From the NCBI GenBank assembly GCA_951406725.2, contig OX597818.1, positions 69,440,001-69,504,000 on the forward strand: 64,000 nucleotides of DNA. The letters are read 5' to 3'. This DNA comes from Octopus vulgaris. Taxonomy: Eukaryota. The position numbers and the translations under genes are program-made. The notes below the pieces were generated by a model. That model did not search any database, was not told the DNA's origin, and worked only from the letters and a program-made list of their open reading frames with translations. This document shows positions 4,193-53,059 of the stretch, one piece after another; the stretch's first letter is position 1; each line of letters opens with the position of its first letter.

Positions 4193-4970
4193 AGTTGGAA
4201 TGTAGATTTCAAAGAAACTCCAAAAATCTATCATGTGGTACCATTTCCAGAATAAATGGAGTCCACATGCCTAGACCCCAATTCCAATATGATGCTAGGG
4301 TGAACTTCTTCATGATGTCTTTCAGCAGGGCAAGCAGAACTTTGATTTTGCCCCCTGTGGTTGGAAACCAATCACCGCCATGCCCAGGTCTAACATGCTG
4401 GGGATGGTTTTCAGCATAGTCATTCATTTTGTCTGCAATATATTGGAACATTTCATCTATCAAAAACTCATGAAAGATTTCCAATGGTGAACTTCCATAT
4501 TCAAGGTCTGCCTTTGTGCCAGGCGAACCAGTATACCCATGCCATCAGATGAAATTGTCTCTCACTCACCACACGACATTCTGTTGTCCAGGGCCTTTCA
4601 CTGCTGCCCACCTGTACCTTTAATTCACCGGAATATCATCATCACTATTTGAATCCTCTGATTCTGAACCAGGAAAATACTCATTCTCTGATTCATCGTC
4701 TGAACTGTAAGAAACAACTGGTGAGGTGGTGGGGGTTGGTGTAGCTTGGCTTCAGGACTGTAAATTCGATGAAACAGGATGTGATGACAAAGTTGACAGA
4801 GCTGGAGTGCCAGGACCAGCCTATTAAATTGTAAATATTTACATAAATCATCTAATTAGCCTATCAGTTGGCAGGTGGTCCAGTACTAACTCAGGTGGCA
4901 TATAATTACGTCAACCGATTTAAAGCAGGTACATTGCATGCGTAAATTTACATCAATCGTTTTAAATGGG
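4193..4970 (-). mobile_element. piggyBac transposon left-end fragment with decayed transposase N-terminus
   Basis: TTAA (4971-4974) next to a CCCATTT terminus on the minus strand; acidic N-terminus (SSDDESENEY..SESEDSNSDDD); ORF 4209-4484 has piggyBac motifs (W.PTT..IK.LL, YW, TP.....DRF..L, LH). Confidence 0.8.
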
Positions 4971-7649: not shown

Positions 7650-7856
7650 TAGGCCCTAGGCATAACATTTTCTAGGGGAGAGGCAAGTCAGTTATATCAA
7701 ATCCAGTACTTGACTGATGCTTTATTTTATTCATCCTAGAAGGATCAAAAGCAAAGTTGAGCTCAGAAGGAACTGAACACAGAATGTGAAGAACTGAAAC
7801 AACTTGTCCCAAGTGTTTATGTCCCTGATGCCCTAACAATTCTACCAGCTCACTGA
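7650..7856 (-). mobile_element. tRNA-derived SINE, family 2
   Basis: Homologous to 1-195. Confidence 0.65.
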
Positions 7857-9050
7857 TGGCCTTCTTTGCAGTAATAACTGTTAACACATTTGCTATGCAA
7901 CTATGGGGATCCAGGTTCATTTCCACTGGTTGGCGGCTTCAGCCTGAGTCTTCTGCCGTAGTCTCAAGGTCTTTGAGTGGAGAGAAACATTTTGTGTTCT
8001 TGAGTGGTATTTTTAACCTAGCTTCAGGTTTAATAGCATCAGCATCAATGTGATGGTCATAACTGGAATACCTTTGGTCATAGGTCTGCTGAATCAGGAC
8101 CAACCTAAGGCTAAACAACTACAGCATGTGAATGTAGAGTTGAGAGTCTTGCTAAAGAAATGAACTCAATCTCTGTAGAACATCTCAGCACAGCTAAATT
8201 TATGAAAGCCAGAAGTCTGCAAAACTTCAGCACTCTGGTCATACATTCTAGCAGTGTTCTATTAAATCAATTATACTTAGATTCCTACACATATATAAAC
8301 ATTTATTCTTCTTTAGTCTTGGAATGTATTTTGTTTTAACAATGCCATATGAAGGAGAAGAAGAGAAAAAAACTTGTTTTACTGAAAAGTGTCAAGAGAT
8401 AATCCATGGCTGTCATTGAGTCAAGATAATGAATATAAATGAGCTGCGTTATATATAATACATATTATACATACACCTTCAACAGTAACACACGCAATCA
8501 CATCTATAGACATTATTGTTAAAAACTCACATCAGGTTAGGTAATGCCACATTTCTATGGCTTATGAAAGCTAACGAAATAAAATTAGCGCCTATTTTGC
8601 CATAAGAAAAACATAGCTCAGTTGAATTTTCTTGTCTAGTTGCTTTTAATGTAAACTGAAAGAATTAAATTTAGTCTCATACTTGCAAGATAACTATCAG
8701 TGCCAACTAAACAACTAATAACACTGTGTCAGAATAAATTCTTGATGATAGAAACACACAAAATTCTTTATGAGTTTCAATGAAAATGGAAAGCGAGAGA
8801 GAGAGAGAGAATCAAACAATAAACGAAACACTGTTTTTACATTTAGTAATTGCATAAAAAAACAAACAAAAAACACACTCAAATACTATTTATTAATGTT
8901 TCTGTAATATGGCAGTGCACAGGTGAATCTGAGTAAAGACTAGTTTGATATACGATGAGACTAAAACATTACTCTAATATCATTTACAGTTATTGATCAG
9001 TGATAGGGAAAACAAAGAAAACGGAGACAAAATAATGTGCTGCTGTTGTT

Positions 9051-32953: not shown

Positions 32954-33376
32954 TCTATTATATAAAATCCGTTCTGTCTGTTTGTCTTCTTGGATCTCGG
33001 GCATCCTCCATCCGATTGTGCTCAAATTTGATATGTAGATACTGACGGAATCAGGGCGTGTATAAGTCTTGAAAAAATTACAAAAATCAGTTCCAGGTGA
33101 GAATGCGATGGATAAAGCCGGAGGAACGTGCATTTGTACACGCAAGTACTTTAAACCCTTTGGTTGCATATTTGTGTGAATAAAATCGTTTTTCTTTGGA
33201 ATAGAAAAAAGTCTATCTTTATTTCTTCTTTTGCTGGTGTCTCAAAATTAGGTTAAATCAGTGTTTCTCAAAGGGGAGGCTATGGGACGGTCAGACAAGT
33301 TGTTTTGAGAAAATTTGGTTTAAATGTTTGACAACTCAGCACCGACCATTGGACGGGGGGGGGTGCATTTTGCTCG
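32954..33376 (+). mobile_element. Non-autonomous Helitron-like element (copy 1)
   Basis: A|TCTATTATATAAAA 5' end, subterminal hairpin CCGACC-ATT-GGACGG, 3' end CTCG|T; close homolog at 52636-53059. Confidence 0.7.
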
Positions 33377-37475: not shown

Positions 37476-37540
<65 letters not shown>

Positions 37541-37547
<7 letters not shown>

Positions 37548-38030
37548 ATATTATAATTCATTTCTCTCGGTCATACTACCTCGGTTCTCGCGGTTAAAAT
37601 ATAATGTTTGCTAGATAGACCACGTGGGTGGAATGGGGAGTGCAGAATTTTACGCCTGCGCATTTTGAATTTGTTGACACTGTTTAGTTGGAGTGGTTCA
37701 TCTGAAGCGACAAGTTCGATGATAGGTAAAGTTCCTTCTTTTTAGTGTTTCCAAATCCAAATTAAGAAATTTTGAGCTGACGAAAGAAATGCTGATTTTA
37801 TTTGGCTAATCTTGAAACGTTGACGTACTCAAACGATCTATGTACTTGTGATATTTTTCTGTATTTACCCCCAAACCTTCGTGAGCTGTCTGGAGTAAAC
37901 ATTATCTGAGAGAAATTTTCTTTAAGTAGTAGAAATGGTAAGAAAAATTTTTTTTTGGCTGCTATTTCTACTAAGTTCAGTATGTGGCAAAGTAATTTAT
38001 TTTACTAAGCCCTAATTATATAATGTAATA
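37541..38030 (+). mobile_element. ~490-bp CpG-rich ORF-less insertion in (TA)n carrying an intact HHR (solo pLTR- or retrozyme-like)
   Basis: Bounded by (TA)n on both sides; many CpGs relative to the flanks; HHR at 37771-37833. Confidence 0.6.
37771..37833 (+). ncRNA. Intact type I hammerhead ribozyme
   Basis: UUUGAG-CUGACGA-AAGA..GCUGA..UUGGC..UCUU-GAAA-CG[UUGA]CG-UA-CUCAAA: perfect 6-bp helix I, full core, tetraloop-capped helix III, GUA site (cut after 37827). Confidence 0.9.
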
Positions 38031-38814
38031 TATATATATATATATATATATGATGGGCTTCTTTCAGTTTCCGTCTATCAAATCTACTCACAAGGCTTTG
38101 GTCAGTACAAGGCACAGTAGAAGACACTTTCCCAAGGTGCCACACAGTGGGACTGAACCCATCTTCTCATCACTTAATTAATGTAATTACCTCAACTTAC
38201 GCTGCAGAGTTCCTGAAGGAGATGCAATGGAAATATGCCCTGACTGCGAATGAAACCAGGTAGCCCCAAACTGTGCCAGTGCCCTACTCTACACTTAAAC
38301 ACACTAATCGGATTACACCTATTAGTCCAAAATAGCTGGCACGTAAAAAGCACCCACTGCACTCACGGAGTTGTTGGCGTTAGGAAGGGCATCCAGCTGG
38401 AGAAACTCTGCCAGATCAGGCTGGAGCCTTGTGCAGACTCCTGGCTTCCAAGACCCCGGTCGAACCGTCCAACCCAAGCTAGCATGGAAAACGGATGATG
38501 ATGATATCTATGTGTGTATATGTGTGTGTGTGTTTTTTTGCATGTCAATATCTATGTGTGTGCGTATGTCATGTGTGTGTATTTGTGTTTGTATTTGTAC
38601 CCCATCAATATTTAACGACCAGCGTTGGTTTGTTTATGTCCATGTAACTTAACAATTTGGCAGAAAAGAGTGCAATTGAGACCAGTACCCATTTTAAAAT
38701 AAAGTACTGTGGTCAGTTCGCTTGACCAAACACTTCAATGCAGCTCCTTAGCATAGCCACAGTCTAACAATTGTAACAAGTAAAATGAAAAATGCTAAAA
38801 CTTATGTGTATATA

Positions 38815-47509: not shown

Positions 47510-47872
47510 TATATAAAGGGAGCTAGAGTGAAAACAACCTTTTCCAGCATGCTTGAAGTGCCAATAACTTCAAAAGATTACCAAAAGCTCAAGCTAAATA
47601 TACATGTGGCTTAAAGTGGTCAAGTGAGAGAAAATTAAAATGACCTCACATTAACTCGTAAATTGGTTCCAGTTTCTGGATTAAAGCAAAAAATAAGCTT
47701 CCTTCCTTCGTCAACACAATACACAGAGGGAGGGGGAAATATAAGTTCAAATAACTGTGCATACCATCCAGCCATGTGTATGTTCAGCTGGAGTTTTTGG
47801 TAGTTTCTTGAAGGTATCGGCACTTGAAGCATGTTGGAGACAAACCCTTTTCACCCTAGCTCCCTTGATATA
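47510..47872. mobile_element. Palindromic element with ~100-bp arms (possible degenerate HHR, family D)
   Basis: 47510-47611 and 47770-47872 are inverted copies; right arm reads GUUUC-uUGAAGg..GAAg-CAUG-UUG-GAGAC. Confidence 0.6.
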
Positions 47873-49960: not shown

Positions 49961-50001
<41 letters not shown>

Positions 50002-50040
50002 TAAAAAATGGAGTTAACGCAGGTTTAAACAAGTATTTTT

Positions 50041-50127
50041 ACTTTCTACATATGTTTCAAAAATTCCACTGATACTTATTCAAAAGAATAAAAGGTATAA
50101 ACAATGCAATCTTCTCTTCGGGAAAGT
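50041..50127 (-). ncRNA. Type I hammerhead ribozyme (CCGAAGA core variant), 3'UTR copy
   Basis: Exact mirror of 52291-52377. Confidence 0.8.
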
Positions 50128-50327
50128 GAAAAAACGAAACTTGTCAATACGACATTTTAGCAAAAAATGATGGATTCGTATAGCGATAGACAGAACGCTA
50201 TTAATATCGTTTAAAAAAACGTTATATGATATAACGTCATAAGTAGCTAACAGAAAGAGTAGGGATATTAATAGTGAATGTTAAATATAAAGGAAATTAA
50301 AGTCTAAACTATATATAATGATAGAGA

Positions 50328-51870
50328 CTACTTATATGCACTAAAAGTATGTTTCTGCCAATGCTTACATCTGTATGCTCGTTCTATAACCGTGTTTACT
50401 AGAGTATTTTTAGAAAAAATAATGAAAAATAGCTCAGAATTGCAGAGAAGACAGAATTTCTTGCCTTTGTCATATGGTATCGAAATTGAGAGGATCAACC
50501 ATTCTAAATGAAATTGTTCATTGTGGTCTTTTAAATCCCAAATCAGTTTGCTGAGACCGGTACTATTCCGTTTATTTCTATCTCTAAATGTTGAGTAATG
50601 GATAGAAATTCTCTTAGATAACTCTAACGATGTGCTTCCAATGTAAAATCGTACTTTATTACGAGTACTGATTATACACTGGTATATAGAATTTTTAATC
50701 TTAGAGTTACTTGACATAAATTTAATTCTATTGGGATTGACTTCAGATACAATAACCTTGTTATTAATATTTCTAGAGGGTTGGATGGTAGTAGCTAAAT
50801 TAATGTTAGTATCAGTAAATGTATTAATATTTAACAGTTTGTTATTATGAGAAGATATAATTTGCAAGAGATTTTTTGTGTTTGAAAAACCTATCCTAAC
50901 CTTATGTGAATTAATTATAGAGTAATATCTAGAATTATTTGGAAAATTCCTAGCAATAGCTTGACGAAACAGCAGTGGGAGATTAGATTTAATTTGTCTC
51001 CCGTCTGGAATTATTAACCAAATATTTTTACTAGTATTCATAGCGTAATTACTATTGAAGGTGTTATATTTACTTTTAGATCGGTAATAGGGGAATAAAT
51101 AAGGGTTATCTGCCTTCATTCGCTTTGTATCGGTGCGTAAGTTATGTTTGTTATCAATAATTCTTTTACAACTAGAAATCTTATCTACATTATTGAATTT
51201 ACAATTAGACTGAGCAGAATCAATGTAGAAAATTTTTTTCTGTATAACCTGCTTTGATTAAGGCAGAGTTATAGAATTCAGCATTATTATTGAAAATATC
51301 AATATTAGCAGATAATTTAGATAATCTAAATGAAATATTCTTAACTAAATTCTTAGTAATTGCTCCAGGATGATTACTAAATTTGCTAATGTACTTAAGA
51401 TTGGTCAACGGTTTATGATATGGGAAGTAAGAGTCACTGGGTAAATTAAGCGTAATATCTAAAAAGTTGGCCTTCGTCAGATCGTCATCAAAAACGATTT
51501 TTAAGCCCATTCTACTGAAAAAATTAACTAAACTGTTCTTAACTTTTTGTATCTTTTGATTGGAAACATTTTGGAGGTAAAGTAAACAATCATCACGATA
51601 TAGACCTCCATAAATGTTAGGGAACTCTTCAGCCATTTCAAAAAGAATATATATACAGACCAAATCAGCTATCTGTGCTGAATCAGAACTTCCCATAGGT
51701 ATATCGAAACTATCTGGTGTGTCTTTACGGACCCACAACTTATCATCAAATTTAATAATAGATCTTCTGGCTGCCAACACAACATTAATTTCTTCTCGGG
51801 TGAGACCAGCTTTGTTATGAGCAAGCCAAAGTGCCTTATTAAGTACTATTGGGTTAATAGATGAATAAAA
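50328..51870 (-). pseudogene. Penelope-like RT-thumb-GIY-YIG ORF, 5'-truncated, one frameshift
   Basis: FYSSI, FDIPMGSSDSAQIADLV, GLYRDDCL, FLDITL, SNHP; SIYQC..FYIGST..KRISIH, CLLC.SE, LVN, CKH. Deleting one base from the T7 run 51233-51239 fuses ORFs 51220-51897 and 50328-51119. Confidence 0.92.
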
Positions 51871-52290
51871 ACTGATTTGGGATTTAAAAGACCACAATGA
51901 ACAATTTCATTTAGAATGGTTGATCCTCTCAATTTCGATACCATATGACAAAGGCAAAAAATTCTGTCTTCTCTGCAATTCTGAGCTATTTTTCATTATT
52001 TTTTCTAAAAATACTCTAGTAAACACGGTTATAGAACGAGCATACAGATGTAAGCATTGGCAGAAACATACTTTTAGTGCATATAAGTAGTCTCTATCAT
52101 TATATATAGTTTAGACTTTAATTTCCTTTATATTTAACATTCACTATTAATATCCCTACTCTTTCTGTTAGCTACTTATGACGTTATATCATATAACGTT
52201 TTTTTAAACAATATTAATAGCGTTCTGTCTATCGCTATACGAATCCATCATTTTTTGCTAAAATGTCGTATTGACAAGTTTCGTTTTTTC

Positions 52291-52377
52291 ACTTTCCCGA
52301 AGAGAAGATTGCATTGTTTATACCTTTTATTCTTTTGAATAAGTATCAGTGGAATTTTTGAAACATATGTAGAAAGT
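52291..52377 (+). ncRNA. Type I hammerhead ribozyme (CCGAAGA core variant), inverted-arm copy
   Basis: ACUUUC-CCGAAGA-[GAAGAUU.CAUUG..AUAC..UUAUUC/GAAUAA.GUAU.CAGUG.AAUUUUU]-GAAA-CAUAUG-UA-GAAAGU; palindromic ACAUAUGU helix III. Confidence 0.8.
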
Positions 52378-52564
52378 AAAAATACTTGTTTAAACCTGCG
52401 TTAACTCCATTTTTTATTCATATTATTCAAATATTCAACGTAAACACGAAGTTTCAACCTTTATAAACAAGGAGTTACAACATCTTTACTTGTGAGATTT
52501 TTGCTGCCCTGGTAACTATTCATTCATTTATCCGTGTTAATTGTTAACAAGGTAAAATACACTC

Positions 52565-52635
<71 letters not shown>

Positions 52636-52636
<1 letters not shown>

Positions 52637-53059
52637 GAGCAAAACGCTTCCTGTCCAATGGACGGTGCTGAGTTGTCAAATATTTAAACCAAATTTTCTC
52701 AAAACAACTTGTCCGACCGTCCCATAGCCTCCCCTTTGAGAAACACTGATTTAACCTAAATTTGAGACAGCAGCAAGCAAAGAAATAAAAATAGACTTTT
52801 TTCTATTTCAAAGAAAAACGATTTTATTCACACAAATATACAACCGAAGAGTTTAAAGTACTTGCACGTACAAATGCACGTTCCCACGGCTTTATCGATC
52901 GCACTCTCACCTGGAATCGATTTTTGTAATTTTTTCATGACTTATACATGCCCTGATTCCGTCGGTATCTACATATCAAATTTGAGCGCAATTGGATGGA
53001 AGATGCCGAGATCCTAGAAGACAAACACACAGACAGACAGAACAGATTTATATAATAAA
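52636..53059 (-). mobile_element. Non-autonomous Helitron-like element (copy 2)
   Basis: Reverse complement of 32954-33376; hairpin CCGTCC-ATT-GGACAG, 3' end CTCA|T. Confidence 0.7.

Follow-up and report, generated by a model that had tools for sequence, protein, structure and literature searches.

The segment at positions 37541-38030 of the window (the whole 64,000-nucleotide stretch analysed, positions 69,440,001 to 69,504,000 of Octopus vulgaris contig OX597818.1) is an insertion that carries a hammerhead motif and lies between two (TA)n tracts. It belongs to a repeat family with a 567-bp unit (family A); E1 and E2 denote the two fixed ends at which arms of such insertions stop. The features are as follows, with the evidence for each.

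37479..37542, no strand: (TA)n target microsatellite on the 5' side (repeat and sequence reading)
37541..38026, plus strand: one arm of the family A unit, truncated at its 5' end, that spans unit positions 82-567 (0.87 of the 567 bp) and stops at E1 (family search, arm mapping)
37765..37839, plus strand: type I hammerhead with an extended helix I, whose distal 3 bp (37765-67/37837-39) lie beyond an internal loop (motif scan, folding, alignment)
37777..37783, plus strand: core CUGANGA box (sequence, motif scan, family copies)
37784..37813, plus strand: two-part helix II; both stems covary and the AAU/UAA internal loop is nearly invariant (subfamily alignment)
37817..37826, plus strand: helix III and its loop, 3 bp with a tetraloop in the monomer, a 10-nt self-complementary stretch with two G-U pairs in the dimer (folding)
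37827..37828, plus strand: predicted self-cleavage site, 3' of GUA, unit position 368/369 (hammerhead consensus, unit mapping)
37926..37973, plus strand: hairpin (z -3.7)
37975..37985, plus strand: 5' strand of the long junction stem, whose 3' partner in the tail (unit about 32-42) is absent from the window copy (folding, alignment)
37986..38011, plus strand: inner hairpin just upstream of start site E1 (folding, alignment)
38020..38026, plus strand: fixed 3' end E1; tail-bearing copies have the alternative end E2 about 92 nt further on (arm mapping)
about 38028..38051, no strand: (TA)n target microsatellite on the 3' side (sequence reading)

An initial annotation had described a CpG-rich, ORF-less insertion bounded by (TA)n, with a further hairpin downstream of the hammerhead, and each part of this description held. 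The segment has 14 CpG sites, with an observed/expected ratio of 0.98 (versus 0.34 in the window) that was reached by 9 of 260 sliding windows; its GC content is only 35%. In a doubled unit, no frame runs free of stops for more than 67 codons, and just 1 of 200 shuffles was as stable as the hairpin. We found no host exon nearby: Pfam scans of 40 of the 181 frames in the window and 98 of the 219 frames in the flanks (30 kb on each side) matched only transposon domains at E <= 0.001, and for an exon-like frame at 7675-7938 no homologue was found. The window also contains a DDE_Tnp_1_7 transposase fragment (4212-4544, minus strand) and a 358-bp repeat that is present twice in opposite orientation, the copies being 92% alike and each adjoining (TA)n (33000-33357 and 52650-53007). 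At about 47510-47870 on the minus strand lies a degenerate relative, in which the hammerhead has decayed (22 bits, E 0.013) and a direct repeat of ~350 bp stands between TA tracts.

By reading the sequence and scanning it for motifs, we recovered every hammerhead element that had been named, and where it had been placed. Helix I is perfect, with six Watson-Crick pairs (37771-37776 with 37828-37833). The core box CUGACGA (37777-37783), GAAA (37814-17), and GUA (37825-37827) are all present. Helix II has two parts, of 4 bp (37784-87/37810-13) and 5 bp (37791-95/37802-06), with the AAU/UAA internal loop between them, and helix III consists of A37817-U37826, C-G, and G-C, closed by the loop UUGA. 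Together, the CUGANGA core, GAAA, the NUH triplet, three helices, and an open helix I make this a type I hammerhead. The cut position, 3' of GUA, is that of the hammerhead consensus. A strict form of the motif (at least 6 bp in helix I, 4 in helix II, and 2 in helix III) occurred in none of 50 dinucleotide shuffles of the window, and a loose form gave a mean of 0.06 matches per shuffle. The string of helix I plus core is common to 51 of 53 family A copies, and the helix III string to 50 of 53. A scan of the segment against Rfam matched no hammerhead family, even at E 10, which the extended helix II may explain; the Rfam scans of the window and the segment gave only microsatellite-driven noise.

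Homologs of the hammerhead show both core conservation and covariation, the two signs by which the initial annotation had proposed to judge it. In an alignment of 14 sequences from four subfamilies, 91% of the cells in the helices are paired (28-43% in slid controls) and 11 of 21 pairs changed on both sides. None of 500 column shuffles reached the covariation score or the number of cells paired, although the score is inflated by the relatedness of the rows; the count of doubly changed pairs was not above column shuffles (359/500). Here and for the junction described below, covariation is based on four to five subfamilies whose rows are not independent, and the structures were drawn from the same sequences. 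The subfamilies also differ in detail. The proximal helix II has its full 4 bp in family A versus a mismatch at the base in B, C, and D, and the 3' side of the helix I internal loop is CGA in family A versus UAA in B, C, and D. Subfamilies B and D have a shorter, classic palindrome in helix III, and in family A this helix has 2 extra nucleotides and keeps the palindrome through G-U pairs. With a complete core that shuffled sequence does not reproduce, and with covariation of its helices in four related subfamilies, the hammerhead (37771-37833) is, by these sequence comparisons, real.

We searched the 2.8-Gb genome for the family and obtained 104 matches from the 40 candidates that were scored out of 1627. 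The top 30 matches were 97-100% identical, with 83 bp between tandem matches, and the 30 loci that we fetched contained the 567-bp unit in head-to-tail and inverted arrangements. Thus, the tandem copies that the initial annotation had suggested looking for do exist, as head-to-tail 567-bp units, and its description of the insertion as young is borne out: the top copies are 97-99% alike, and the window copy differs from the family majority by 4 substitutions in the 456 positions compared. The genome contains at least 384 exact matches to 24 nt of the hammerhead, as compared to none for the reversed control. Units of family A lie head to tail with no ORF between them, in up to 3.6 units, and have a GC content of 34%. 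Subfamily B is 77% identical and reaches 13 full units in tandem, and the older subfamilies C, D, and E are about 70-76% identical in alignable parts. The 13-unit array (L176:1020-9132) is a single insertion bounded by E1 and E2 in (TA)n; it may have expanded locally at a later time. Elsewhere, a family A insertion adjoins a B insertion in a case of nesting (L025), and another hammerhead-like motif (34 bits) lies on the minus strand within a long fold-back insertion (L102:2946-3032). The family has the features of a retrozyme, namely tandem ORF-less units of low GC content with one type I hammerhead each. As for the proposal that the segment is a retrozyme monomer, the family is indeed of retrozyme type; the window copy is less than a whole monomer, being 0.87 of a unit and 5'-truncated at unit position 82.

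To describe how these insertions are built, we mapped the arms of 29 family A and 24 subfamily B insertions chosen by score (after dropping 1 and 6 duplicate loci), plus 16 family A insertions taken in positional order along contig 1, two of which look like one duplicated locus. Each arm ends either at E1, which is the end of the unit, or at E2, about 92 nt (family A) or 103 nt (subfamily B) beyond it, and (TA)n follows; in the insertions whose flanks we examined, the fixed ends adjoin (TA)n. The 5' ends are scattered, so that insertions are 5'-truncated, and often an inverted arm is present. Arm lengths range from 0.1 to over 13 units (the loci for the family A search and for subfamily B were chosen by best score, which favours long arms). 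Among the 33 two-armed insertions with both ends classifiable, 31 had one E1 end and one E2 end, two had E2 at both ends, and none had E1 at both ends, which differs from independent choice (binomial p 1.3e-7). This count excludes 12 two-armed or complex loci in which an end was truncated or ran off the locus edge, or which were compound (L012, L016, L023, L025, L027, L068, L079, L081, L197, L199, L206, and L210).

Partial tandems, an inverted 5'-truncated arm, a tail at one end, and a microsatellite target are the features of a non-autonomous Penelope-like element (PLE). According to the available text of Craig 2021 (PMC8557442), PLE insertions show partial tandems, 5' inversions or inverted truncated copies, a one-ended tail, and a bias towards (TA)n, and the available text of Frangieh 2024 (PMC11167929) describes two internal start sites, shown biochemically, from which a Penelope-type reverse transcriptase makes the tail. 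Because the family matches both descriptions, we conclude that its insertion footprint is that of Penelope-like elements.

The region around the two ends also has a structure of its own. A second RNA structure spans E1 and E2: a long stem joins sequence before E1 to the tail, and there is a hairpin before each site. Each of A, B, D, and E, folded separately, gives this junction, and in nine sequences it is 94% paired (33-45% in slid controls), with 5 of 28 pairs changed on both sides. A circularised monomer folds with a z of -7.2 against 40 shuffles. A CCCT motif lies about 11-14 nt before both start sites (38004-38015 in the window, and homologous sites); we take the copy at E1 to resemble one reverse-complement telomeric repeat.

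The insertions also carry information about the template. The 5' ends of arms do not pile up at the predicted cut site (5 of 115 lie within 10 nt, with 4.3 expected; 3 of 115 lie within 3 nt, with 1.4 expected, p 0.17), and many arms extend across at least one ribozyme site; the reverse transcriptase therefore probably copied a circle or an uncut multimer. Units diverge less within insertions than between them (0.8% versus 1.3% in A, 0.6% versus 1.8% in B). In addition, 10 (A) and 12 (B) locus-private substitutions are common to all the units that cover them, often in both arms, as compared to 58 and 40 in single units. Both observations imply that the two arms come from one source. One B insertion (L074) is made of two unit types in alternation, ordered X,Y in one arm and Y,X in its partner. 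Such an order would fit a heterodimeric circle or a linear trimer as template, so not every template was a single-unit circle. There was no sense-strand excess of A>G (17 versus 22 T>C in A, 16 versus 15 in B), and hence no editing scar that would give independent proof of an RNA intermediate. In a post hoc comparison across family A and B loci, A>G or T>C made up 17 of the 32 private variants common to all units and 23 of the 110 in single units (p 0.0007), with T>C ahead (12 versus 5); the enriched variants are possibly inherited errors of reverse transcription. In four runs that we guess to be RNA, and which may be DNA, assembled contigs match portions of the unit, and in each run a single contig extends across the predicted cut site; strand, ends, and circles cannot be read from these contigs.

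Overall, we consider it very probable that the segment is a 5'-truncated copy of an ORF-less, hammerhead-bearing 567-bp tandem repeat that inserts into (TA)n with two fixed ends and is likely copied in trans by a Penelope-like reverse transcriptase-endonuclease. Tandem source copies would be transcribed, and their hammerheads, probably as dimers, would cut the transcripts to unit-length RNAs, which could be ligated into circles. A Penelope protein would then bind the junction RNA, nick (TA)n, and prime at two internal sites, one per DNA end, and by reading through the ribozyme site the reverse transcriptase would make arms 0.1 to over 13 units long. The copy in the window would be a one-armed product. 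As it has one ribozyme and no tail, release of a unit-length RNA and formation of the junction stem are likely both beyond it, and it is probably a dead end that is unable to seed further copies.

In looking for a partner, we searched with the GIY-YIG family and two protein queries and sampled three coding families (78 loci). Young coding families of Penelope type, with open frames 778 and 781 codons long, are present in the genome, as is a third family. One young, truncated coding Penelope-like element is in the window itself, at 49995-52567, with the end of the reverse transcriptase and GIY-YIG on the minus strand at 50328-51906. (TA)n flanks it on either side, one end bears a tail of about 144 nt, and an inverted arm of 555 bp matches perfectly. 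Its hammerhead-like motif has the core CCGAAGA in most of the copies listed; we take the element to resemble the Hydra clade. This copy shows the same pattern of TA, inversion, and tail as the 567-bp repeat. At another locus (L047:2614-3150), a young coding element adjoins an older subfamily C copy at the latter's E1 end, and we rejected a template switch as the explanation: similarity to kin is no higher than 94% for the C copy and is 99% for the coding element, so nesting is likelier.

This shared footprint is also what would be expected if the unit were the terminal repeat (pLTR) of yet another coding Penelope-like element, with the short insertions as its truncated products, in line with the initial annotation's proposal of a young solo pLTR. 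Retrozymes are related to pLTRs according to the available text of Li et al. 2026 (bioRxiv 10.64898/2026.07.22.740005), and only three coding families were sampled. However, we found no 3' repeat homologous to the unit in those three families (78 loci), and the profile matches in their 3' regions were separate retrozyme insertions. By tblastn, none of 69 family A or B insertions, a sample rather than a census that includes the 16 taken in order from contig 1, is joined in line to a Penelope ORF. The unit has no coding frame, and it recurs head to tail without an intervening ORF, 13 times over in subfamily B. The solo pLTR thus finds no support in these insertions, and we consider it unlikely.

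Slightly less likely still, in our view, is that the window copy cleaves a host transcript efficiently as a monomer, as the initial annotation had suggested for the case that it lies in an intron. The core is intact, the 2-bp helix III with a tetraloop is like that of the efficient invertebrate retrozyme hammerheads described in the available text of PMC7229834 (where most of them cut efficiently), and family A has the full proximal helix II that B, C, and D lack. The claim that the motif can fold as a monomer stands insofar as the hammerhead fold is just 0.3 kcal/mol above the minimum-energy fold (-11.3 versus -11.6 kcal/mol). It is marginal, however, with a predicted pairing probability of about 0.07 for helix III as against 0.42-0.45 for a competing pairing between the helix III strand and the core (tertiary contacts are not part of nearest-neighbour folding). 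Helix III and its loop are predicted to form a 10-bp self-duplex at -10.8 kcal/mol, as compared to +0.4 as a hairpin. This palindrome favours dimers, and on all these grounds the description "probably active" is doubtful for a monomer. Also, the 3' side of the helix I internal loop departs from that of the other subfamilies, the copy is recent and unremarkable in its 4 differences from the majority, and there was no host exon among the 138 frames scanned. As for experiments, the available text of PMC7229834 gives 22% cleavage per hour for the monomer of an axolotl motif with a similar helix III, and that of Li 2026 reports that 1 of 9 Xenopus dimers cut. Palindromic helix III motifs of this sort act as dimers according to the available text of PMC4209133, and as modelled here, the family's hammerhead probably works as a dimer too.

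Finally, the family could be a satellite that spread at the DNA level, through unequal crossing-over or by rolling-circle DNA transposition, and in which the hammerhead is a passenger. Such spread would suit the long arrays and the non-periodic shared variants of the 13-unit array (which fit local exchange after insertion). However, the combination of a fixed 3' end and a random 5' end, the inverted arms, and the E1/E2 pairing all point to target-primed reverse transcription, and the RNA structures covary. As a route of dispersal, spread at the DNA level is therefore very improbable and largely refuted, although array length may still be due to it.

Returning to trans-copying by a Penelope-like enzyme, we tentatively propose a more specific form, to which we give somewhat less than an even chance: a dimeric Penelope-type enzyme would grip the conserved two-hairpin junction of a circular retrozyme RNA, prime both (TA)n ends from sites ~92 nt apart, one per end, and then roll round the circle. 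If so, the enzyme would recognise its RNA by the covarying junction, which would thereby account for the PLE tail, and the family could readily serve for the first direct test of mobilisation in retrozymes. The window copy itself is ordinary: it is one of hundreds, truncated, and probably inert. Mobilisation of animal retrozymes by PLEs has been proposed, and in the available published text it is not shown from insertion structure. What the family adds is an ORF-less hammerhead repeat with a full Penelope footprint, a one-site-per-arm rule, and a conserved RNA junction, and the last two lead to concrete bench predictions about the template (circle or multimer) and its recognition. Our searches of the open-access literature yielded no paper that describes such a family in this animal group or the E1/E2 pairing of arms.

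We compared the family to known systems as they are described in the available portions of the papers cited. Metazoan non-LTR retrozymes (Cervera and de la Pena 2020, PMC7229834) are alike in their ORF-less, low-GC tandem units with one type I hammerhead each, in a predicted circle that is highly self-paired, and in co-occurring with Penelope-like elements, by which their mobilisation is only proposed. Their units are 150-450 nt, versus 567 nt here, and in contrast to them the family has no discernible target-site duplication in (TA)n and has short, inverted, and tailed insertions. Expression and circles have been shown for those retrozymes. In its sequence and insertion features, our family is both a putative animal non-LTR retrozyme and a putative non-autonomous Penelope-like element (as described in Li 2026 and Craig 2021).

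For vertebrate retrozymes, Li, Clavereau and Pollet (2026, bioRxiv 10.64898/2026.07.22.740005) reach the same conclusion about origin, that they are non-autonomous PLE derivatives. Their family lengths of 51-972 bp include our 567-bp unit, and they also view solo copies as immobile offspring. Their evidence is co-occurrence and pLTR phylogeny, whereas ours is the insertion footprint, without a parent pLTR in the families sampled. They favour local tandem growth, whereas here multi-unit arms are bounded by E1 and E2.

Two kinds of Penelope-like elements share parts of the footprint. Poseidon of Anolis carolinensis (Frangieh 2024, PMC11167929) shares the tail from two internal start sites, AT-rich targets, and extension of both strands, and uncut RNA was its dominant template in vitro, which is a further likeness. 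Unlike the non-coding unit, with its tail of about 92-103 nt, Poseidon is autonomous and has a tail of 30-40 bp; in the available text, its start sites do not differ between strands, and one-site-per-arm pairing is not among its reported features. Non-autonomous PLEs such as MRC1 of Chlamydomonas (Craig 2021, PMC8557442) share head-to-tail non-coding insertions, an inverted 5'-truncated copy, a tail that is often at one end only, and microsatellite targeting. Unlike our family, these elements, as described there, have no canonical hammerheads, and their 3' end is like that of a known partner.

Last, the canonical type I hammerheads of metazoans and PLEs (Cervera and de la Pena 2014, PMC4209133) share a helix I of 6 bp, a helix II of 4 bp, a short helix III, and a palindromic loop suited to dimers. 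Unlike them, the family has helices I and II that are both extended through internal loops of the AAU/UAA type, and in family A helix III is 2 nt longer, with G-U pairs preserving the palindrome.
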